Assembly (NCBI GenBank): GCA_964392845.1
Contig: CAYMRQ010000002.1
Location: forward strand, 1-61,495
Direction of reading: 5' to 3'
From: an uncultured Rhizobium sp.
GTDB taxonomy: Bacteria > Pseudomonadota > Alphaproteobacteria > ATCC43930 > CGMCC-115725
Length of the DNA stretch: 61,495 nt
Shown in pieces: positions 15,209-52,175 of this stretch; within the stretch, counting starts at the first letter, position 1, and every line of letters begins with the position of its first letter. A program made the translations under genes and the position numbers. The notes under the pieces were generated by a model. That model saw nothing but the letters and a program-made list of their open reading frames with translations. It was not told where the DNA came from and made no database searches.

Positions 15209-16303
15209 ATGATGCGCTCATGGATCCATTTCACCCGCGGCCGCTTCGTGCGCCAGGCGCGGATCGGGCTCGACGAAGCGAAGCTCAAGGAGGAGCATCT
15301 GAGCCGGCAGGGCTTTGCCGGGCCGGTGGCGATGCTCTACCGCACCGATGGGCCGAACGAGGTCGTCCGCATCGAGGGCGACTACCGGCCGCGCGCGGTG
15401 GACAGCGCCGATGTCGTCGCGCCCGACGCCGATGACCCGCGCGGCGGCTGGCAGACCCTCTTGGCGAACCAGGATGTCGCGGTCGCGATCAGCCGGCGGC
15501 ATCAGGCGATGCCCTATTGCTACCGCGACATGGTCGGCGACCTCCTCTATTTCGTGCATCGCGGCCGCGGCACCTTCGCGACCGAGTTCGGCCCGATCGC
15601 CTACGAGCCCGGCGACTGGGTGTTTTTGCCGAAAGCGACGACCTTCCAACAGTTGCCCGATCCGGGCGACAGCCTCTTACTGGTCGTCGAGTCGCCAACG
15701 CCGATCCGCCTCGCCGAGCACGAGAATGTCGGCCGCCACACCCCGATCGATCCGACGATGCTCGACGTGCCGGACGTCGCCGATTACCGCCGCGCGCCGC
15801 AGAGCGAATACGAGGTGCGCATGAAGCACGAGGGCGGCCACAGCTCGATCTTCTACAAGAACGATCCCTTGAAGGTGGTCGGCTGGAAGGGCGATCTCTT
15901 CCCGTTCAAGTTCAATGTCCGGCACATCCTGCCGATCATGTCCGACCGGATTCACATCCCGCCCTCGTCATGGGTGACCTTCGAGGCGCCGGGCTTCTGC
16001 ATATTGACCATCCCGCCCCAAATCGCGGTGTCCGACATGCAATCGGAGGAATTGCCCTCCTATCACCGCAACATCGACATGGACGAAGTGATGCTGGGCC
16101 ACGCCGACACCGACCCCTCCGGCCGCCGCCCCGGCATGTTCCGGCATACCCCGCAAGGCATCCTGCACGGCGCCACCGAAGCCTACCGCGCCGAATTCCA
16201 GAAGAAACGCAAGCCGGGGACGCACCGCACCGCGACGATGGTCGGGGTCGACACCTACCGCCCGCTCAATGTGGCGCCGGAATTCGCCCGCATGGCGGGG
16301 TAG
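15209..16303 (+). CDS. Homogentisate 1,2-dioxygenase-like cupin protein
   Basis: 364 aa. The N-terminal EHLSRQGFAGPVAMLYR and the cupin core DLLYFVHRGRGTFATEFGPIAYEPGDWVFLPK resemble the HgmA-like family. The call is at family level only. Confidence 0.6.
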   Translation: MMRSWIHFTRGRFVRQARIGLDEAKLKEEHLSRQGFAGPVAMLYRTDGPNEVVRIEGDYRPRAVDSADVVAPDADDPRGGWQTLLANQDVAVAISRRHQAMPYCYRDMVGDLLYFVHRGRGTFATEFGPIAYEPGDWVFLPKATTFQQLPDPGDSLLLVVESPTPIRLAEHENVGRHTPIDPTMLDVPDVADYRRAPQSEYEVRMKHEGGHSSIFYKNDPLKVVGWKGDLFPFKFNVRHILPIMSDRIHIPPSSWVTFEAPGFCILTIPPQIAVSDMQSEELPSYHRNIDMDEVMLGHADTDPSGRRPGMFRHTPQGILHGATEAYRAEFQKKRKPGTHRTATMVGVDTYRPLNVAPEFARMAG

Positions 16304-16319
16304 CAGATCGAGGTCAGAC

Positions 16320-16601
16320 ATGAACGACAGAGGGAGCCTGGAATGGGAGGCAGAATTCGTGGAGGCTGGAGCGGCCCTAGAGCATGAGCGGTGGGCACGT
16401 TGGCAATCTTATCTATTTAGTAGGTGTACCCAAAACCAAGATGGCTCGCTCACTATAAGTCGCGAAGATGCAGAGCATTGGAAACGTCAACTCGCTACGC
16501 CCTATGAGGATTTATCCGATGCGGAAAAAGAGAGCGATCGAAAGGAAAGCAGGTTATATCTGCCTCTTGTGAGGGCAGCGCTATCACGTGCGCGAGATTA
16601 G
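16320..16601 (+). CDS. Small hypothetical protein with a weak RyR-domain-like motif
   Basis: First gene of the lower-GC islet. LEHERWARWQSY ... ATPYEDLSDAEKESDRKES resembles the E-x-W-A / P-Y-x-x-L-x-x-x-E-K-x-x-D-R pattern of bacterial RyR-like domains. Confidence 0.5.
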   Translation: MNDRGSLEWEAEFVEAGAALEHERWARWQSYLFSRCTQNQDGSLTISREDAEHWKRQLATPYEDLSDAEKESDRKESRLYLPLVRAALSRARD

Positions 16602-16614
16602 AAATATTCGAGGG

Positions 16615-17601
16615 TTATATTCGGGCGAGTTCAGCTAACTTCCGATAATGAGCTCCTAACGCGGTGAGTCGGCATGCTTTGGAATTGATAGCGGCATGGT
16701 ACATATGTTCCGCTTCGACAGGGACGACGAGCCCATGCCGGTTGCACATTTGCAATTCCTTGAAGATCCGTACGTGGGCCGCATCAACCGGTATGTGAGC
16801 GAGGTCAGGAAGGTTCGCGCGATCCTCCTCATACGAAGGATCTAACCTAAATACGAAAGCCGGTTCGGGGAAGTAGTTTGGCAGCCGCCGCAATGCATCT
16901 AGGGGGACTTTGGGCGTGACCTCACGCAATGTGACGAAGGTCTGGACATTCGCCTTGTAGACGGGCCGCTGTTCCCATGGCCCGAGGGTTTGGTCGATAT
17001 GGGAGTAGACTGAAGCGGGAGTAATGCGGCCGCATACGTCAGCCGCGCCTCCCTCCAAGCCGTCAAGCAATAGGCTCGTGAATAAGCCATGCCCATCCGC
17101 TTCAGCGGCGGTGCCCTCCCGGTGACAGGCAGTAAGGATGGTTACGCCTGCACCCACCATGGAGACATCCGTGCGACCTAAGCCCGATACTTCTCCCGCG
17201 TACCCAGCTTGGCAACTATCGAGTATGATGACCGAGGACTTGATCTGGGGGTGTGCTGTGTTGGCTCGGTCGAGTAGTTCGCTGAGCGGCGTGCCCCATG
17301 TCGGCTTAGAGCCATCCTGCATGATGATGTAGCCGGCATTCGTAGTCTCGTTGACAATTCCATGTCCAGCAAAGAAAAGCAGTGCAATGTCAGCGTCTCC
17401 TTTGAACAGGTTATCAAGCGCGTCGTGGACGAGAGCCGTCGTAACCTGCACCCTATCAGAAGTGAGAAGGCGCACTGCAAAATTGGGTGAGCCGTCTCCG
17501 TTCTCTTCGAGTATCTTCGCGACCGCGGTCGCATCGTTCACACAACCCTGCAGCGGCATCGTCGGGTAGTTATCTATCCCAACTACAAGCGCGCGTTTCA
17601 T
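16615..17601 (-). CDS. Caspase-like (peptidase C14) protein with an uncharacterised ~130-aa C-terminal domain
   Basis: MKRALVVGIDNYP...LQGCVNDA, a His in LLFFAGHGIV and a Cys in VIILDSCQAGYAG form the canonical caspase/metacaspase His-Cys dyad context. The gene is lower in GC than its flanks. Confidence 0.85.
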   Translation of the reverse strand: MKRALVVGIDNYPTMPLQGCVNDATAVAKILEENGDGSPNFAVRLLTSDRVQVTTALVHDALDNLFKGDADIALLFFAGHGIVNETTNAGYIIMQDGSKPTWGTPLSELLDRANTAHPQIKSSVIILDSCQAGYAGEVSGLGRTDVSMVGAGVTILTACHREGTAAEADGHGLFTSLLLDGLEGGAADVCGRITPASVYSHIDQTLGPWEQRPVYKANVQTFVTLREVTPKVPLDALRRLPNYFPEPAFVFRLDPSYEEDRANLPDLAHIPVDAAHVRIFKELQMCNRHGLVVPVEAEHMYHAAINSKACRLTALGAHYRKLAELARI

Positions 17602-17604
17602 GCG

Positions 17605-17994
17605 TCACCGAGCGCCGCCGATTAGGCTTTTGAGGTTATCCCATGCCCATCTGTATAGCTTGTCGCTTGTCTTTGCGGCCGTGGGTTTAGTGCAACTCTT
17701 GTCTGCATACCCCTTTAGGAGAAAATAAGGAACCTTCTCTTCCTGCGCGATTTTAACCTCGGCGCTCACACCGGCGGCTGTGTGCGTGTGCTGCCCGCAC
17801 AAGACGGCAACGACATCGACAGACCTGATGCGGGTGCGTGCCTTCTTTTTCCAATCCTCGGAAATTGCTTCCTTTATCGACCAATCAGCCAACTCGAATG
17901 GGCTATCCGAATGCTTTGCTTGGCCAACCAAAAGATGCTTCAAGCTTTCGTCGTGATCGTAGTCGAAGCTTACAAAGACGCGGCTCTTAGCCAT
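17605..17994 (-). CDS. TIR-like domain protein (DUF1863 / ThsB-like)
   Basis: 129 aa from ATG 17994 with a GAAGGAG RBS. SRVFVSFDYDHDESLK ... VVAVLCGQHTHTAAGVSAEVKIAQEEKVPYFLL matches the MTH538 TIR-like pattern, including a candidate catalytic Glu. Its stop is 3 nt before the caspase start. Confidence 0.75.
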   Translation of the reverse strand: MAKSRVFVSFDYDHDESLKHLLVGQAKHSDSPFELADWSIKEAISEDWKKKARTRIRSVDVVAVLCGQHTHTAAGVSAEVKIAQEEKVPYFLLKGYADKSCTKPTAAKTSDKLYRWAWDNLKSLIGGAR

Positions 17995-18259
17995 AGGGGG
18001 AACTCCTTCGAATCGACACGCTCTTAGATGATGCAGCAGTCCCGTGACCAATCCCAATCACGGGTGCCGTTGCGACCGTCCGGAACGCGAGCGATGCGGA
18101 TATTGCCCCCCAGCGTGTAGATGTCCAGCCCGCGACGCTTCGCCTCAGCAGCATGGCGTATGCTATTGATTTAAAAAAGCCTGAGCTCACGATGGTTAAT
18201 TTTTCCCCGGCTAATTCCCCCATCTGTCTCGAATTGCCGACGCTCGATTCGCAGCACGT

Positions 18260-18343
18260 TAGGATGGGCTGAACGGAGCGAAGCCCATCGCTGCGCGGCA
18301 GCCGACCGGGGTGATGGGCTTCGCTCCGTTCAGCCCATCCTAC
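18260..18343. repeat. Palindromic REP-like element, family E
   Basis: taggatgggctgaacggagcgaagcccatc ... gatgggcttcgctccgttcagcccatccta. The arms are near-perfect at about 30 bp. Confidence 0.85.
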
Positions 18344-18587
18344 GAAGCCATGCCTCGGGACAAAGAGGGAGGCGCGACACGAAACCGCGCCGCTAAATTT
18401 GCCACATTCATGTGGTAGTGTCGGTTTGTCATGGATCGGGGCGAGGGTGGCAATTCAACAAAAACGGGAATTCGACCTGATCCTGGCCTGATACATCAGG
18501 AATGCCGTTGCGCTTACTAAACTCCAGATTGCAAACGCCTAAGGCGCTCAGGCTTCCGGCGCTGACGATGTGATCGAATGATTTTTG

Positions 18588-18672
18588 TTGTCATGCCGGC
18601 GAAGGCCGGTATCCACTGATCCGCGGCACGAGCGGCCGAGGGGTGGGTCCCGGCCTCCGCCGGGACGACGAA
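18588..18672. repeat. REP-like element, family A (two hairpins)
   Basis: gtcatgccggcgaaggccggtatc ... ggtcccggcctccgccgggacgac. Confidence 0.8.
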
Positions 18673-18690
18673 TGGATTGAGGACCGAGCC

Positions 18691-31369: not shown

Positions 31370-34300
31370 CTAATAGGCTTCCGATCCCAACCCGGTTTCG
31401 TGCTGCTCGGCGAGCGCGCGCAGCGGCTTCTCGCCGAACCGCAAGAACAGGACAGGCGTCAGCACGGCATCCAATAGCGTGGCGCCGATCAACCCACCGA
31501 AGATCACCAGGGCGACGGGCGACAGGATTTCCTTCCCCGGCTGGTCACCGTTGAGCATCAGGGGGATCAGCGCGCAGCCGGCCGAGAGAGTCGTCATCAA
31601 TACCGGCGTCATGCGTTCGAGGCTGCCGCGCACGATCATCGCGCGCCCGAAAGTCTCGCCTTCATTGAGGACCAGATTGATGTAGTGGCTGATCTTGAGA
31701 ATGCCGTTGCGCGTGCTGATGCCGGCCAGGGTGATGAAGCCGATCATCGTCGCCAGCGACAACGTCCCACCGGCGAGCCACAGACCCAGGACGCTGCCGA
31801 TCAGCGCCAGCGGCACGTTGAAGATGACGATCAGGGCCAGCGCCGTCGAGTTGTAGCGCGTATAAAGAATTGCGAAAATCAGCATCAGCGAGACCAGCGA
31901 CAGCACCGCGATCCGCTTGGTCGCCGCCTGCTGCGCGGCATAATTACCCTCGACACTGACAAAGTAGCCGGCAGGGAGGCTCATCCGGGCGGCCTGCTGC
32001 TCGATCCCGCGGGCGATCGCCGCCATATCGGTGCCGTCGGTGTTGGCGAGGATCGCAACGCGCCGCAAGCCGTTGTCGCGGACGATCTGGTTGGGCCCGT
32101 CGCTGTCCCGGATATCGGCAAGCTGCTGCAACGGCACGTGGCCGAACGGCGTATCGATCAGCAAGAGGCGCAGCGCATCGCTCGTTCGATCGGCGTCATC
32201 GAGACGGATGAAGACGTCGTAGCGGCGGTTTTCGTCGACGACTTCGGAGGTAACCCGTCCGGCAGCGAGCGTCTCGAGCAGCCGCGTCAGCTGCGCCGAC
32301 GTGACCCCGTAGAGCCGTGCGGCATCGGGATCGATGCGGACGCGCAACTGCGGGATGCGGGCCTGAGTCTGAACCTTGAGGTCGGTCAGGCCCGGCACAT
32401 GGCCGAGCCGCCCACGCAGACCTTCGGCCAATTTCCCCAGCGTATCCAGATCGGGCCCGTAGACCTTGACCGCGAGTTGCGAGGGCAGACCGGTCATCAG
32501 GAGATTGAGTCTGTGGGTCAGCGGCTGGCCAATATGCAGCGCGCCAGGCATCCCGCTCAAATGATCGCGAATGTCCTGCAACACCACCGACAGCTTGCGT
32601 TGCGACGACCGTAAATCGACGTCGATATTGGTCTCGTAGATGCCGTCGGCATGCAGATCGAGCTCCGCACGCCCGGTGCGCCGAGCGACCGACTGGACCT
32701 CGGGAACCCCGAGCAGCAGCTTCTCCGCCGCCGCGCCCATGCGGTTCGACTGGATCAGCGAGATACCGGGACGGTACGTCAACTCGATCATGTACATGCC
32801 TTCGTTGAGCGGCGGCAGGAACGCGCGCGGCAGATAGCTCACGGTGACCGCGGCAACGACTACCCCGGCCAGCGCCGTCGCGATCAGGCCCGGCTGGTGT
32901 TCGAACGCCCAATTCAACAGCCGCGCGTTCTGTCGCTTCAACCAGGCGATCAGCGCGGAATCGCCATGGCGCATCTGCTTCATCTGCGGCAGCAGGTAAT
33001 AGGCGAGGACCGGCGTCAGGGTGATCGAGGTGATCAGACTGGCAAAAATCGATACGATATACGTGATGGCGAGCGGCGCGAACATGAGTCCTTCGATCCC
33101 GGGAAGCGCAAACAGGGGAAAGAAGACCAGAAGAACGATCAGCGTCGCATAGAAGATGCCGGAGCGCACTTCGACGGTGGCGTCGGCGATGACCCGCAGG
33201 GCCGGCAGCGGCTCTGCCAGCGCGCGATTGAGGCGCAGCCGGCGAAAGGTGTTTTCGACCCCGACCACGGCATCGTCGACCAGTTCGCCGGTCGCGATTG
33301 CCAAGCCGCCAAGGGTCATCGTGTTGATCGTCAGGCCGCCGAGCCAAAAGACCAGTATGGTGATGCAGATCGAGATCGGGATCGCGGTCAGCGAAATCAC
33401 CGTCGTGCGGAAGTTGAGCAGGAAGGCGAACAGCACTACGGCGACCACCGCCGCCGACTCGAGCAGCACGCGCTGCAGAGTGGCAATCGAATGCTCGATA
33501 AACTTCGCCTGCTCGAAGACGATCTTGTCGGCGCGGATGCCCTGCGGGAAGAACGGGCGCATCTCGACGAGCGCCTGCTCGACCCGCCGAGTCAATGCCA
33601 GGGTGTTGACCCCGGGCTGCTTGTGAACGCGCAGCTGCACCGCGGGTTTGCCCATGAGCCCGGCGTCACCCTGCTTGACGCGCGGTTCGAAGCCTACCCC
33701 GGCCAGCTGCCGCAGCAGGACCGGCCGTCCGTCGCGATATGCCACCACCAGGTCGCGCGCGCCTGCGATCACAGCCTCGGGCTCGCGGGTCCGGCCGAGG
33801 TTCATGATCAGGAACCGGCGGCCATATTGGTCGACCGAATCGCCACCGGTATTGGTGTTGTAAGCGGTCAAGGCCTGCTCGAGCTGGTCGACCGTCACAT
33901 TGAGAAAATCGAGCTTGCGCGGGTCGGGGGTGATGCGCAATTGGCGCACGTCGCCGCCCATCGGCAGCACCTGCGAGATGCCCGGGATGGCCATCAGCCG
34001 GGGCCGTAAATACCAGTCGGAAAAATCGCGCAACGCCATCATGTCGCCGGTATCGGAGGTCATGGCGATAATCAGGATCTCGCCCATCACCGAGGATATC
34101 GGCGCCATCTCGGGCGTCACATTGTTGGGCAGCATCTCCCGCGCCTGAGCAAGCCTTTCGGCGACCAGCTGCCGGTTGCGATAGGTGTCGGTGCCGAGCT
34201 CGAAATCGACGTTGACGATCGAGAGGCTCGAACTTGAGATTGAGCGCACGCGCGCGACGCTATTGAGCCCCGACATCGATGTCTCGATCGGGAAGGTGAC

Positions 34301-34492
34301 GCGCCGCTCAATCTCCTCGGGTGCCAGCCCCTCGCCTTCGGTGATGATCGAAACGGTAGAGCGGTCGATTTCCGGCAGGACGTCGACCGGCACCCGCTGC
34401 AGCCCGAGTGCGCCGCCAATGAATAAGAGGCCGGTGCCGCACAGGATTAAAACCCGGTGCGACAGACTCCGGCGGATCAAATATGCGAACAT
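31370..34492 (-). CDS. CusA/CzcA-family (HME-like) RND efflux permease, paralog 1
   Basis: 1040 aa. MFAYLIRRSL...VDVLPEI..., a 12-TM RND layout and the TM4 motif GGLAIATGELVDDAVVGVEN. It is co-linear with CusA/CzcA. Confidence 0.9.
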   Translation of the reverse strand: MFAYLIRRSLSHRVLILCGTGLLFIGGALGLQRVPVDVLPEIDRSTVSIITEGEGLAPEEIERRVTFPIETSMSGLNSVARVRSISSSSLSIVNVDFELGTDTYRNRQLVAERLAQAREMLPNNVTPEMAPISSVMGEILIIAMTSDTGDMMALRDFSDWYLRPRLMAIPGISQVLPMGGDVRQLRITPDPRKLDFLNVTVDQLEQALTAYNTNTGGDSVDQYGRRFLIMNLGRTREPEAVIAGARDLVVAYRDGRPVLLRQLAGVGFEPRVKQGDAGLMGKPAVQLRVHKQPGVNTLALTRRVEQALVEMRPFFPQGIRADKIVFEQAKFIEHSIATLQRVLLESAAVVAVVLFAFLLNFRTTVISLTAIPISICITILVFWLGGLTINTMTLGGLAIATGELVDDAVVGVENTFRRLRLNRALAEPLPALRVIADATVEVRSGIFYATLIVLLVFFPLFALPGIEGLMFAPLAITYIVSIFASLITSITLTPVLAYYLLPQMKQMRHGDSALIAWLKRQNARLLNWAFEHQPGLIATALAGVVVAAVTVSYLPRAFLPPLNEGMYMIELTYRPGISLIQSNRMGAAAEKLLLGVPEVQSVARRTGRAELDLHADGIYETNIDVDLRSSQRKLSVVLQDIRDHLSGMPGALHIGQPLTHRLNLLMTGLPSQLAVKVYGPDLDTLGKLAEGLRGRLGHVPGLTDLKVQTQARIPQLRVRIDPDAARLYGVTSAQLTRLLETLAAGRVTSEVVDENRRYDVFIRLDDADRTSDALRLLLIDTPFGHVPLQQLADIRDSDGPNQIVRDNGLRRVAILANTDGTDMAAIARGIEQQAARMSLPAGYFVSVEGNYAAQQAATKRIAVLSLVSLMLIFAILYTRYNSTALALIVIFNVPLALIGSVLGLWLAGGTLSLATMIGFITLAGISTRNGILKISHYINLVLNEGETFGRAMIVRGSLERMTPVLMTTLSAGCALIPLMLNGDQPGKEILSPVALVIFGGLIGATLLDAVLTPVLFLRFGEKPLRALAEQHETGLGSEAY

Positions 34493-38306: not shown

Positions 38307-41300
38307 CTAATACGCTTCCGAGCTGCGGCCGATCCAATGCGCCTGCAGCCGCGCCAGCGGCTTTGCGCCGAGCTTGAGAAAGAGGACCGGCGTCAGCACC
38401 GCGTCGAGCAGGGTGGCGCTGATCAGACCGCCGAAGATGACCACCGCCACCGGCGCCAGAACCTCCTTACCGGCGCCGGCGCTGCCCACCATGATCGGGA
38501 TCAGGGCAAGACCGGCACACAGCGCGGTCATCAGCACCGGCGTCATACGCTCCAGGCTGCCGCGCAAGATCATCTCGCGCCCGAAGGTCTCGCCTTCGTG
38601 GAGCACTAGATTGATGTAATGGCTGATCTTGAGGATGCCGTTGCGCGTGCTGATGCCCGCCAAGGTGATGAACCCGATCGCGCTGGCAAGCGACAGCGTG
38701 CCGCCGGTGATCCGCAGAGCAATGACGCTGCCGACCAGCGCCAATGGCACATTGGCCATGATGATCAGGGTCAGCACCGTTGAATTGTAACGAGAGTAGA
38801 GGATCGCAAAGATCAGCGTAAGCGACCCCAGCGACAACACGCCGATCTGCATCATCGCCGCCTTTTGCGCCTTGTAATCGCCTTCGATGCTGAAGAAGTA
38901 CCCGGGCGGCAGGTTGAGGCGGACGATCTCCTGCGCGATGCTCGCGGTGATCGCCGCCATATCCGACCCATCGGTATTGGCGAGAATGGCGATGCGGCGC
39001 TGGGCATTATCGCGAACGATCTCATTGGGCCCGTCGGTGTCGGTAAGCTCGGCAAGCTGGTGCAGCGGAATCCGTCCTGCCGGCGTGTCGATCAGCAGGC
39101 TCCGCAATCCGGTGGTGGTGCGATCGACATCATTGAGGCGGATGACCACGTCGTACCGTCGGCTTGCTTCGACGACCTCCGAGACCACCCGCCCCGCGGA
39201 CAGGGTTTCGAGCGTCCGCGTCAGCGCCGCCGGTGTGATGCCATAGAGCCGCGCCGCGTCCGAGTTGATCCGGATGCGCAGCTGGGGGATGCGGGCCTGG
39301 GTCTCCAGTCTCAGATCGGTAAGCCCGCCGACATTCGCCAAACGGCCGCGGAGCTGGTCGGCGAGCTTTACCAGGTTATCGAGATCCGGGCCGAACAGCT
39401 TGACCGCAAGCTGTGCGGGGAACCCCTCCATGATGGATTCGATCCGGTCGGTGATCGGCGCGGTGATATTGACCACCGCCGGCAGCACGCTGACACGCTT
39501 GCGGATATCCGCGATGATTTCGGAGCGTGGCCGCTGCGACGGCCCGACGCGAACGACGATCTCGAAGTGGTGGATCGGATCGGCATCGAGATCGCGCTCG
39601 GCCCGCCCGGTCCGATGACCGACGACCTTCACCTCCGGTATCTCCAGGATCAGCTTCTCGTTCGTCATCGCCAGCTCGTTCGATTGCGCCAGCGACATCC
39701 CGGGAAGGTAGGTGAACTGCACCAGGTAGGTCCCTTCGTTCAGCGGCGGCAGGGCGGCGCGCGGCAAGTACATAAGGTCGGCAGAAGCGAGGGACACTGC
39801 CGCCACGGCAACCCCGGCGACGGTTTTCCAATGATCGAAGCCCCAAGCCAGGAGCCGCGCGTTCTGCCGCTTGAGCAACCTCACGAGGCCAGCATCGCGA
39901 TGCGCCATGCGCTTCATGCGGGGCAGCAGGTAGTAGGCGAGCACCGGCGTCACGGTGATCGACGTGAACAGGCTCGCAACGATCGAAACGATGTAGGCGG
40001 TCGCCAGCGGCTTGAACATCAGCCCTTCAAAACCCGGCAGGGCGAAGAGCGGGAAAAGCACCAGCAGCACGATCACGGTCGCATAAAAGATCGCCGACCG
40101 CACTTCCACCGTGGCGTCGGAGATGACCTGGAGCGCGGGAAGCGGGTCGCCGAGCTGGCGGTTGAGGCGCAGCCGGCGAAAGATATTCTCGACCCCGACC
40201 ACGGCATCGTCGACCAGCTCGCCAATGGCGATGGCCAGCCCTCCCAAGGTCATCGTGTTGATCGTCTGGTGCAACAGCTTGAAGACCAGGACGGTGATCA
40301 GCAGCGAGATCGGCAGCGCCATCAGCGAGATGATCGTCGTCCGCGCGTTGAGCAGAAAGGCCGAGAGGACGACGATGACGATGACCGCCGCCATGATGAT
40401 CACGTCGGTGAGATTGGCAATCGACTCCTTGATGTACTCGGCCTGCTCGAAGAAGATGTTGTCGGCATGAACCCCGGGCGGCAGGAAGGGCCGCAGATCG
40501 AGCAGCGCCTTCTTGACGTCGCGCGTCAGCTCCAGCGTATTAACCCCGGGCTGCCGCAGGACATTCATGCCGACGGCCAGCTGGCCCATGAACCCGGCAT
40601 CGCCCTGCTTGACGCGGGGGGCGTAGCTTACGGTCGCCACCTCACGCAGCGAAATCGGCCGTCCGTGCGCGTTGCCGACCACCACATCGCGCGCGCCCTC
40701 GAGCAAAGCCTCGCTGTTTTGCGCGCGGCCGAGATTGACGATTTGAAACCGCCTTCCGTACTGGTCGACCGACCCGCCGCCGGTGCTGGTGTTGTACGCG
40801 GCAAGGGCCCGTTCGATCTGGTCGACGCCGATACCGTAGAAATCCAGCCGGCGCGGATCCGGGGTCACGCGCAGCTGGCGGACCTCGCCGCCATACACAA
40901 AGACCTGGGAGACGCCCGGGATCGCCAGCAGGCGAGGCCGGATCAGCCAATCGGTGACATCGCGCAGCGCCATCATGTCGCCATCGTCGGTGGTCAACCC
41001 GATGCGCAGGATCTCGCCGATCACCGACGCCAGCGGCCCCAGCTCGGGTCTCACGTTTGCCGGCAGTTGGGAACGCACCTGGGCGAGCCGCTCCACGACC
41101 ATCTGCCGGGCCCGGAAGATATCGGTGTTCATCACGAAGGCCACCGATACGATCGACAGGCCGGTGCCCGATTTCGAGCGCACCTTTTCAACGCCTTTGA
41201 CCCCCATCATCGCCGTCTCGAGCGGGAAGCTGATGCGCCTTTCAACCTCCTCCGGCGAGAGGCCAGCACTCTCGGTGACGATCCACACGACGGATCGGTC

Positions 41301-41426
41301 GATTTCCGGCAGCGCGTCTACCGGCATATGCCGCAATTGGATCGCGCCGACGACGATCAACACGGCGGCGCCGCATAAGACGAATATCCGATGGATCAGG
41401 CTCTGCCGGATCAGATACGCGAACAT
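38307..41426 (-). CDS. CusA/CzcA-family (HME-like) RND efflux permease, paralog 2
   Basis: 1039 aa. By eye it is roughly 60-65% identical to 31370-34492 over the N-terminal 240 aa. The TM4 motif is the same (GGLAIAIGELVDDAVVGVEN). Confidence 0.9.
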   Translation of the reverse strand: MFAYLIRQSLIHRIFVLCGAAVLIVVGAIQLRHMPVDALPEIDRSVVWIVTESAGLSPEEVERRISFPLETAMMGVKGVEKVRSKSGTGLSIVSVAFVMNTDIFRARQMVVERLAQVRSQLPANVRPELGPLASVIGEILRIGLTTDDGDMMALRDVTDWLIRPRLLAIPGVSQVFVYGGEVRQLRVTPDPRRLDFYGIGVDQIERALAAYNTSTGGGSVDQYGRRFQIVNLGRAQNSEALLEGARDVVVGNAHGRPISLREVATVSYAPRVKQGDAGFMGQLAVGMNVLRQPGVNTLELTRDVKKALLDLRPFLPPGVHADNIFFEQAEYIKESIANLTDVIIMAAVIVIVVLSAFLLNARTTIISLMALPISLLITVLVFKLLHQTINTMTLGGLAIAIGELVDDAVVGVENIFRRLRLNRQLGDPLPALQVISDATVEVRSAIFYATVIVLLVLFPLFALPGFEGLMFKPLATAYIVSIVASLFTSITVTPVLAYYLLPRMKRMAHRDAGLVRLLKRQNARLLAWGFDHWKTVAGVAVAAVSLASADLMYLPRAALPPLNEGTYLVQFTYLPGMSLAQSNELAMTNEKLILEIPEVKVVGHRTGRAERDLDADPIHHFEIVVRVGPSQRPRSEIIADIRKRVSVLPAVVNITAPITDRIESIMEGFPAQLAVKLFGPDLDNLVKLADQLRGRLANVGGLTDLRLETQARIPQLRIRINSDAARLYGITPAALTRTLETLSAGRVVSEVVEASRRYDVVIRLNDVDRTTTGLRSLLIDTPAGRIPLHQLAELTDTDGPNEIVRDNAQRRIAILANTDGSDMAAITASIAQEIVRLNLPPGYFFSIEGDYKAQKAAMMQIGVLSLGSLTLIFAILYSRYNSTVLTLIIMANVPLALVGSVIALRITGGTLSLASAIGFITLAGISTRNGILKISHYINLVLHEGETFGREMILRGSLERMTPVLMTALCAGLALIPIMVGSAGAGKEVLAPVAVVIFGGLISATLLDAVLTPVLFLKLGAKPLARLQAHWIGRSSEAY

Positions 41427-51386: not shown

Positions 51387-52175
51387 CTATCCCGACGGGG
51401 ATTTCGCGAACGCCACATAGGCGCTCGGCGCGATCCCGTAATCGCCGCCGAACGGATAGCTCAGCTTCAAGATCACCAGAAAAATCGACATCGTCACCGT
51501 TGCCACCAGGGTCGACATGATAAGCGGCGCAACGAGGCTCGGGCTGCCGAAGAACCAGGGGAAGATGATACAGATCAATGTGCCGACGGCCGCAACCCCC
51601 CACAAGAGCGGGGTCAGCGCACCGAGACTGAGGCGAATTCGGGCGCCGCGATGGTTGCGCACGACATCGAGCATCTGCAACGAATATTGAAAGGCCGATA
51701 TTTCCTTTTCGGTCTGCGGCTCTATTGCGAGATACGTATAGTACAAGTCGTCGAGAGCGGCCGAGCTCTCGAAGCTCAGCAAACGCGCCTGCATCCGCGG
51801 CCACTCGAGGTCGGCAACCGAACTTGCATAGTCGCGCAACTCCCTGCGCAGCTGGTTTCTCGTGTCTCTCGGATAGGCGCTGGCGATGCGATCGAGCGTG
51901 GTCAGCGCATTGACCTCGACGATGATATCCGAGCGTACATCATCGTATTTCTGATAGACGCCAAACAGCAGCAATCCGATGTAGCCGGCATACACGGACG
52001 ACAGAAACGCATATTTGAAGCCGCCGATGATGTTGTTGACAACGAGTTGACCGGGAGTGACGTAATAATTGACGATCAGCGTGCCCAGTACCGTGATTGC
52101 GATGCCGCCGCCGATCGTAAGCACGGCGCCGGTGCCGACCGGAAGGTCATTCAGCCATTGTATGAGGCGCATCAT
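51387..52175 (-). CDS. DUF4239-like membrane protein (paralog A)
   Basis: It has two N-terminal TMs, a helical middle region (EVNALTTLDRIASAYP...LRDYASSVADLEWP) and two C-terminal TMs ending LKLSYPFGGDYGI.PSAY. It is colinear with 52698-53492. Confidence 0.65.
   Translation of the reverse strand: MMRLIQWLNDLPVGTGAVLTIGGGIAITVLGTLIVNYYVTPGQLVVNNIIGGFKYAFLSSVYAGYIGLLLFGVYQKYDDVRSDIIVEVNALTTLDRIASAYPRDTRNQLRRELRDYASSVADLEWPRMQARLLSFESSAALDDLYYTYLAIEPQTEKEISAFQYSLQMLDVVRNHRGARIRLSLGALTPLLWGVAAVGTLICIIFPWFFGSPSLVAPLIMSTLVATVTMSIFLVILKLSYPFGGDYGIAPSAYVAFAKSPSG

Follow-up and report, generated by a model that had tools for sequence, protein, structure and literature searches.

An RyR-like gene beside an inserted type IV Thoeris module in an uncultured Rhizobium sp.: a possible host-encoded partner of cyclic ADP-ribose signalling

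Type IV Thoeris pairs a TIR protein with a caspase-like protease and has been described as 'an abundant two-gene operon' (Rousset et al., bioRxiv 10.1101/2024.10.24.620036; Science 2025). Upon infection the TIR makes N7-cADPR, an N7-linked isomer of cyclic ADP-ribose (cADPR); the protease is activated by this signal and cleaves promiscuously after arginine, and infection is aborted (bioRxiv 10.1101/2024.10.24.620036). Defence is abolished by the substitution E79Q in the TIR of the Pseudomonas sp. 1-7 system (PsTIR) and by C129A in its protease (PsCaspase), and the two-gene operon of E. coli is slightly toxic on induction (Rousset et al., bioRxiv 10.1101/2024.10.24.620036). Here we analyze a locus of this kind in a 61,495-nt stretch of DNA from an uncultured Rhizobium sp. 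(assembly GCA_964392845.1, contig CAYMRQ010000002.1, positions 1 to 61,495), referred to below as the window. A TIR gene (thsB) and a caspase-like gene (thsE) lie there next to a third, small gene whose product resembles ryanodine receptor (RyR) domain proteins, and it is this third gene that is our main subject.

RyR-domain proteins have themselves been connected with cADPR signals, in two 2026 preprints. RyDEP (gp78 of mycobacteriophage DyoEdafos) acts as a glycosidase on 2'cADPR and 3'cADPR. Four residues are key to it (H75, W78, H100 and D117): His75 and Asp117 form the catalytic dyad, Trp78 stacks on the adenine and His100 coordinates phosphate; other members of the RyDEP family are nanomolar sponges (PMC13232231). 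RyR Tad (gp68 of Pectobacterium phage CB1) sponges 3'cADPR, 2'cADPR and canonical cADPR (bioRxiv 10.64898/2026.06.04.730250). The characterised RyR-domain relatives are obligate dimers (PMC13232231; bioRxiv 10.64898/2026.06.04.730250). A further phage protein, TadIV-1 of T-even phages, is a sponge for N7-cADPR and forms a helical dimer without a recognisable protein domain (PMC13243611).

A first-pass annotation made from the sequence alone had placed two minus-strand genes, 3 nt apart, in the window and read them as TIR-like and caspase-like. An open reading frame (ORF) check found them at the same positions, with thsB at 17605-17994 (129 amino acids) and thsE at 16615-17601 (328 amino acids), both on the minus strand. 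ThsB is a stand-alone TIR of the ThsB/DUF1863 type and the predicted signal synthase; the ATG at 17994 gives a product of a length common among its homologues. It matches Pfam ThsB_TIR PF08937 with 35.1 bits (cut-off 21.2; E=1.9e-8), and a match to either PF08937 (ThsB) or PF13676 (TIR_2) is what the authors of type IV Thoeris ask of the TIR in their detection rule. BLASTP against PsTIR, whose sequence was taken from Table S2 of Rousset et al., gave 37% identity over the full length (E=7e-23). Glu79 (in GVSAEV), already singled out as the candidate catalytic residue, is in register with PsTIR E79. Identity to the E. coli TIR (EcTIR) is 23% and confined to the C-terminal 77 residues (E=1e-6); EcTIR is of another TIR class. 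A PDB sequence search with ThsB gave no match. On the catalytic mutant of PsTIR the preprint is inconsistent: the Results name E79Q, a passage of the Methods E89Q (bioRxiv 10.1101/2024.10.24.620036). E79 is right, as PsTIR carries a Glu at position 79 but not at position 89.

ThsE, the predicted effector, carries a Peptidase_C14 domain over approximately residues 1-206 and matches Pfam PF00656 with 64.8 bits (cut-off 21.4; E=1.2e-17). The His-Cys dyad (His80 in FAGHG, Cys130 in DSCQAG) is intact, and both residues are invariant in 40 homologues. When an AlphaFold2 model (predicted local distance difference test, pLDDT, 81) was compared by Foldseek, the matches were MALT1 paracaspase, caspases 1, 6, 7, 8 and 9, and metacaspases, with E-values down to 5e-9; a PDB sequence search retrieved metacaspase-4 only, as a weak match. 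The validated effectors served as references. PsCaspase was read from the native Pseudomonas sp. 1-7 locus, found by looking up PsTIR (the start of the PsCaspase gene had no exact DNA match in species-representative genomes), and EcCaspase from a complete E. coli genome in which the EcTIR gene agrees with Table S2 at all 399 nt given there (100% identity). Over residues 1-328 ThsE shares 48% identity with PsCaspase (E=4e-98), Cys130 pairing with C129, and 46% with EcCaspase (E=2e-100). These end-to-end alignments take in the C-terminal domain (approximately residues 207-328) that had been left unassigned, and this domain is among the best-conserved parts in both; we propose it as the signal receptor. 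No type IV Thoeris structure was among the PDB sequence-search or fold-search matches for the TIR or the caspase.

Homologues of the caspase number more than 3500, the closest being 67-82% identical over their full length and spread across alpha-, beta- and gammaproteobacteria. Directly upstream of the caspase gene, each homologous locus that we examined has a TIR gene encoding 123-138 amino acids, so that the gene-neighbourhood survey proposed in the first-pass annotation bore out the pairing. Type IV Thoeris allows at most one gene between the two; here they share a strand and a gap of 3 nt. All sequence-level defining features of the system are present, and by these marks the pair very probably is a type IV Thoeris system, which is what the first-pass annotation had suggested. 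Gene order (TIR, then caspase) agrees with the described systems, with overlap of the two genes in Pseudomonas sp. 1-7 in place of the 3-nt gap; protein sizes are alike (TIR 123-133 and caspase 321-331 amino acids), Glu79 and the Cys-His dyad are in register, and carriage on mobile DNA is a common trait. The differences are that the window TIR falls in a 129-amino-acid subclade with only 37% identity to PsTIR, that there is no second TIR gene, present in many loci, and that an RyR-like gene is attached, which both validated loci lack. The 2023 release of PADLOC recognised the window pair only by a generic caspase model and weak ThsB matches. An EACC1-type conflict system was considered and rejected, as the NCBIfam model 'caspase_w_EACC1' matched the protease domain only, below its cut-off.

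Taken alone, then, the TIR-caspase pair is one more copy of a published, abundant defence system. To call it an architecture reported only very recently overstated its novelty, with thousands of homologues on record and the authors' own word 'abundant'; nor does the label 'orphan', given to the pair because no further partner was seen, add anything, since the caspase is itself the effector.

Some observations on type IV Thoeris loci elsewhere may be recorded here. Many have a second TIR gene of about 158 amino acids (TIR_2/EcTIR-like), placed before the first TIR or after the caspase (loci L001-L004, 7011-7487; L007, 1536-2012; L008, 5197-5688; L009, 3113-3595; and several of L041-L052); it is given its own column in Table S1 of Rousset et al. 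(bioRxiv 10.1101/2024.10.24.620036). A DUF6338 gene recurs beside loci without an RyR-like gene, in Burkholderia cepacia and in Pseudomonas sp. 1-7 and its relatives (L005, 7096-7842; L099 and L100, 3799-4389; L101, 2923-3513), and may be either a further accessory gene or a defence gene in its own right. The E. coli system that supplied our EcCaspase reference (L010, strain 165, NZ_CP020509.1, 3886579-3887956), its EcTIR gene identical to the printed 399 nt of the cloned E. coli 328 system, lies in a lambdoid prophage between the Q antiterminator and holin genes, the classic position of a moron, and is carried by 14 of 5426 complete E. coli genomes.

The third gene (16320-16601, plus strand, 93 amino acids) had been overlooked, although its start codon is the very first position of the range that the first-pass annotation delimited; the two genes it listed stand, and its account of the locus was to that extent incomplete. 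Is this short ORF a gene at all? It has a GAGG Shine-Dalgarno sequence 6 nt upstream of its ATG, which itself follows the stop codon of the upstream gene by 16 nt, and it converges on thsE, whose ORF ends 13 nt past its stop codon. Orthologues 66-76% identical occupy the same convergent position beside the closest caspase homologues on five independent contigs, and the family shares the motifs LEHERWxxWQ, DGSLTIP and YxDLSxxEKESDR. By these features the ORF is a real gene.

As to what it encodes, 26 of 38 family members match the RyR domain family PF02026 at E<=0.1, the best at 9.7e-6 and 26.2 bits (cut-off 27.4). Searched against PDB, the family profile matches RyR-domain chains: 6uhi with E=1.1e-5, and 6uag and 3nrt, two Bacteroides chains labelled 'putative ryanodine receptor', with 0.003-0.02. 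The PF02026 match of the window protein runs from residues 12-81 to profile positions 19-79, and that of RyDEP from residues 72-117 to positions 26-71. If the matches are taken as ungapped, H22, W25 and D73 of the window protein fall on positions 29, 32 and 71, as do H75, W78 and D117 of RyDEP. None of these three residues varies across 162 relatives, of which 83 are host-encoded and 79 viral, and the same is true of W28 and W54. Because the window protein is itself sub-threshold on PF02026 while the family profile matches RyR-domain chains in PDB, we treat it, on sequence grounds, as a divergent relative of the RyR/R12 superfamily and not as a curated PF02026 member. PHROGs offered no useful match for the family.

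Relatives of the third gene occur in at least 225 species-representative genomes. They were sought in one genome per species, and linkage was counted in the best 80 of the 225 loci found. A full-length ThsE stands beside the RyR-like gene in 73 of these 80. In 68 of the 73 it lies directly upstream on the same strand, at a median distance of about 12 nt, and a PsTIR-type TIR, which reaches 85% identity to PsTIR, comes before it; the operon of Achromobacter sp. M1 (L020, 4619-6282) is a clean example. The linked loci span Actinomycetota, Alpha-, Beta- and Gammaproteobacteria, and Acidobacteriota. Plasmids give the same picture: ThsE is close by in 21 of 22 records with an RyR-like gene, that gene being immediately downstream in 19 and nearby in two, and conversely 21 of 50 ThsE-positive records (~42%) have the RyR-like gene. 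Two arrangements can be told apart. In the BTAi1/PsTIR-type clade the RyR-like gene is the third gene of the operon; in the caspase clade of the window it is convergent or displaced (window, L011-13, L074, L047, L090, L095). This conserved gene linkage, as well as the homology and the catalytic residues described above, is a matter of observation.

A metallophosphoesterase gene sometimes follows the RyR-like gene directly (L009, 5299-6678; L052, 6245-7588; L075, 6340-7728), and overlaps it by 1 nt in the plasmid of Bradyrhizobium sp. BTAi1; found in 3 of 80 loci, it was rejected as a conserved fourth gene.

Viral relatives are arranged otherwise. They were present on 105 IMG/VR contigs, and among the 79 examined for neighbours none had a TIR or a caspase within 5 kb. 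Stand-alone relatives 42-45% identical to the window protein occur in cultured cyanophages (Microcystis phage LMM01, NC_008562.1, 32409-32624, and related MaMV phages) and in a gut phage (MT835687.1, 3649-3876); judged by sequence, they are candidate anti-type-IV-Thoeris genes. Other phage relatives sit among small accessory genes. In the literature on type IV Thoeris, Thoeris surveys, TadIV-1, RyDEP and RyR Tad, our coverage of which is incomplete, we met no Thoeris operon described as carrying a host-encoded RyR-domain gene; in contrast to the two-gene system, its association with type IV Thoeris had no earlier report in what we searched, though that association may be known elsewhere.

How did the three genes come to lie here? 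They occupy an AT-richer islet, as had been noted from base composition and codon usage. The GC content is 55.2% for 16304-18642 and 65.2% for the remainder of the window, and GC at third codon positions (GC3) is 0.61/0.62 for the TIR-caspase pair and 0.47, the lowest of the islet, in the RyR-like gene, against 0.85-0.89 in the flanking genes (in summary, 0.61 against 0.88). Over 600-nt intervals this is the sole strongly low-GC segment (minimum 0.518, compared with 0.648 +/- 0.034). The neighbours are metabolic, as previously described: the left one encodes an HgmA_N-like protein, the right one a luciferase-like monooxygenase.

Acquisition from elsewhere, which the first-pass annotation had proposed, is upheld by empty sites. 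Scanning metagenome contigs with the left flanking protein gave 80 syntenic loci (72-93% identity), and TIR, caspase or RyR-like sequence was present in 0 of the 80. Both flanking genes occur in 20 of them, in the same order and 103-2304 nt apart; the spacing in the window is 2384 nt. Since syntenic relatives thus have the same flanking genes without the cassette, the cassette was inserted. Nucleotide homology to nine cassette-free loci ends at 16301-16306 and restarts at 18678-18689, and from 18257 onward the window shares native spacer elements with such loci; on the basis of these breakpoints and shared elements the insert is placed at about 16304-18250, comprising the three genes and some 250 nt upstream of thsB, presumably with the promoter. 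DNA homology to cassette-bearing contigs of other genomic contexts covers exactly 16337-17988, and the three-gene block recurs in an unrelated context in L011. The islet is a horizontally inserted module of about 1.9 kb.

The palindromes to the right, which had been offered as a further sign of acquisition, did not hold up in that role. A perfect inverted repeat at 18260-18342, with 30-nt arms and a 23-nt loop, is unique in the window, and copies 82-85% identical occur in the same intergenic spacer of the cassette-free loci L190 and L218. We rejected it as the insert boundary: being present at empty sites, it belongs to the host spacer, outside the cassette, and does not mark the insert. Rfam returned nothing for it save a spurious microRNA match. 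The element of the GTCATGCCGGCGAAGGCCGG family, similar to repetitive extragenic palindromic (REP) sequences, has six copies in the window (0.07 expected by chance), at 408, 10766, 10807, 15046, 18590 and 18650, often as inverted pairs and intergenic; one such pair lies at 18590-18669. Dispersed as they are through the window, these elements are native to the host and likewise no insert mark. They resemble repeats of Bradyrhizobium-like alphaproteobacteria.

Our best explanation of the whole, with a probability of roughly 0.55, is an inserted type IV Thoeris module together with an RyR-like protein that acts on the TIR product. As to chemistry, phenotype and what the third gene does, we infer the following. 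Judging from the homologous systems of Pseudomonas sp. 1-7 and E. coli 328, ThsB would respond to phage infection by cyclising NAD+ to N7-cADPR through Glu79. ThsE would bind this product, probably via its C-terminal domain in a dimer, and its His80/Cys130 site would then cleave cellular proteins after arginine, aborting the infection. The host RyR-like protein would bind or hydrolyse the TIR product and would thereby damp leaky signalling, determine the threshold of activation or return the system to rest. The toxicity of the induced E. coli two-gene operon would give a rationale for such a damper, to which we allow slightly less than an even chance. In its general form the proposal is that a large subset of type IV Thoeris (~40% of plasmid-borne systems) is a three-gene system in which the RyR/R12 protein binds or hydrolyses N7-cADPR as an off-switch or threshold-setter, and that the phage relatives (the 105 IMG/VR contigs, with the Microcystis phages of the LMM01/MaMV group) are a family of inhibitors; this we put forward tentatively, as somewhat doubtful.

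Several points weigh against a protein acting on the TIR product. The window protein scores 17.2 bits on PF02026, below the gathering cut-off of 27.4. RyDEP's phosphate-binding His100 has no conserved counterpart: R56, at the equivalent position, varies, and it is the neighbouring Q57 that is conserved. Direct comparison of the family with RyDEP was not significant (hhalign probability 0.1; hmmsearch E=0.28 as a single comparison). An AlphaFold2 monomer model (pLDDT 93.5) had no Foldseek match at E<1 in PDB or BFVD, which may be because the relatives are dimers and a monomer was modelled. N7-cADPR is linked between ribose and adenine N7, and the bond that RyDEP cuts is the ribose-ribose bond. 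The scan of the DNA upstream of thsB detected no promoter-like site. Lastly, the validated Pseudomonas sp. 1-7 and E. coli loci defend without an RyR-like gene, which is therefore accessory and dispensable for core function, and in the window the gene is convergent and not co-transcribed with the pair.

The last two points are also what a rival account would expect, namely that the pair is a plain two-gene type IV Thoeris and the RyR-like gene an independent passenger, for example a phage-derived anti-Thoeris gene carried by mobile elements near defence genes. Convergent orientation in the window leaves room for read-through from the metabolic gene upstream; phages commonly encode relatives, in stretches of small accessory genes; and the window copy is about 56% identical both to viral relatives and to the more distant host relatives. 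A passenger would not, however, be expected as a tightly spaced, same-strand third gene in 68 of 73 genomic loci, which come from Actinomycetota, Pseudomonadota and Acidobacteriota. The host copies moreover form the tighter group, with E21, R24 and Q29 invariant in them, the window copy included, and variable in viral copies; and a constitutively co-transcribed inhibitor without a role in the system would disable the defence, so that selection should remove it. We consider the passenger account unlikely.

The same operonic position, and the strict conservation of ligand-contact residues, would fit activation equally well. The RyR-like protein might be a positive component: a co-receptor handing the signal to ThsE, an enzyme converting the TIR product to the active ligand, or a sensor or guard of phage sponges. 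The residues invariant only in hosts suggest an interaction absent from the phage copies, which could then be dominant-negative mimics. Set against this, two-gene systems of two species suffice for signal production and protease activation, one of them with a PsTIR-type TIR up to 85% identical to the TIRs of three-gene operons, and the characterised relatives all remove signal, none relaying it. A positive role seems to us a little less probable even than that of a passenger.

It is very improbable that the TIR-caspase pair does not serve active immunity here, whether as a decaying remnant or in some other use such as stress-induced cell death. That no promoter-like site was detected would suit this notion, as would the position of the islet, isolated among metabolic genes and not in a defence island. 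All three ORFs are nevertheless intact and full length, all catalytic and family-invariant residues are present, and 67-82% identity to homologues across bacterial classes implies strong purifying selection. Terminator-like sites were no commoner in the scanned DNA than in shuffled sequence.

Outside the islet, GC falls below 0.58 in one short stretch only, at 51.5-52.3 kb (down to 0.568); this milder patch overlaps an ORF of 262 amino acids (51387-52175, minus strand) whose sequence resembles a multi-pass membrane protein. Two minus-strand ORFs of about 1040 amino acids each, at 31370-34492 and 38307-41426, suggest a metal-efflux region downstream of the islet; the protein cluster of the second includes a member named 'HME family heavy-metal exporter', and that of the first consists of the window protein alone.

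Thus the earlier observation of a TIR-caspase islet is confirmed and its interpretation supported, and nothing in the locus except the RyR-like partner goes beyond published knowledge; for this reason it matters more than the pair. That RyR-domain proteins degrade or sponge cADPR signals is a very new finding, so far made solely for phage weapons, and in the literature searched we found no description of a host mechanism to switch off or buffer Thoeris signalling. If our reading is right, an operon-wired host copy gives Thoeris an equivalent of the CRISPR ring nucleases, a new anti-type-IV-Thoeris family is predicted in phages, and control of signals by RyR domains extends from the viral to the host side and to the N7-linked isomer. 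It would also bring a bacterial case to bear on a long-standing question, whether ligands of the cADPR type are recognised by RyR R12 domains. The proposal can be put directly to existing assays: the EEKAR-AMC caspase reporter, LC-MS of N7-cADPR, and phage challenge.

Compared with the phage proteins that act on cADPR signals, the window protein stands nearest to RyDEP and RyR Tad. All are small proteins matching PF02026, close relatives of the window protein likewise stand alone in phages, and its H-x-x-W motif and downstream Asp lie on the profile positions of H75, W78 and D117 of RyDEP. It differs from both in that its gene belongs to the host and is physically linked to the signal-making system, and in its presumed ligand, N7-cADPR; we found this molecule nowhere mentioned in the RyDEP paper (PMC13232231), nor type IV Thoeris in that on RyR Tad (bioRxiv 10.64898/2026.06.04.730250). 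From RyDEP it is set apart further by its sub-threshold score and non-significant direct similarity, by a 9-residue insertion (the DGSLTIP beta-hairpin) and by having no phosphate-binding His. TadIV-1 is alike in being a small protein (92-101 amino acids for the two) acting, as shown for the one and proposed for the other, on the type IV Thoeris signal; unlike the RyR-like family it has no recognisable domain, is a helical dimer and is known from phages only, and its structure, PDB 9WIW, was absent from the family's profile matches.

A last parallel comes from type III CRISPR. Its ring nucleases (Crn/Csx) and their viral relatives, AcrIII-1, make up a family that degrades a second messenger within the host immune locus and serves as stand-alone anti-defence in viruses. 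Fold, chemistry and immune system are unrelated to those considered here, and the likeness is one of analogy only. The split between host and virus is nonetheless the same, RyR-like loci being linked to the system in 73 of 80 genomic cases and in 0 of 79 viral ones, and by this analogy the stand-alone phage relatives of the RyR-like protein become candidate inhibitors of type IV Thoeris.

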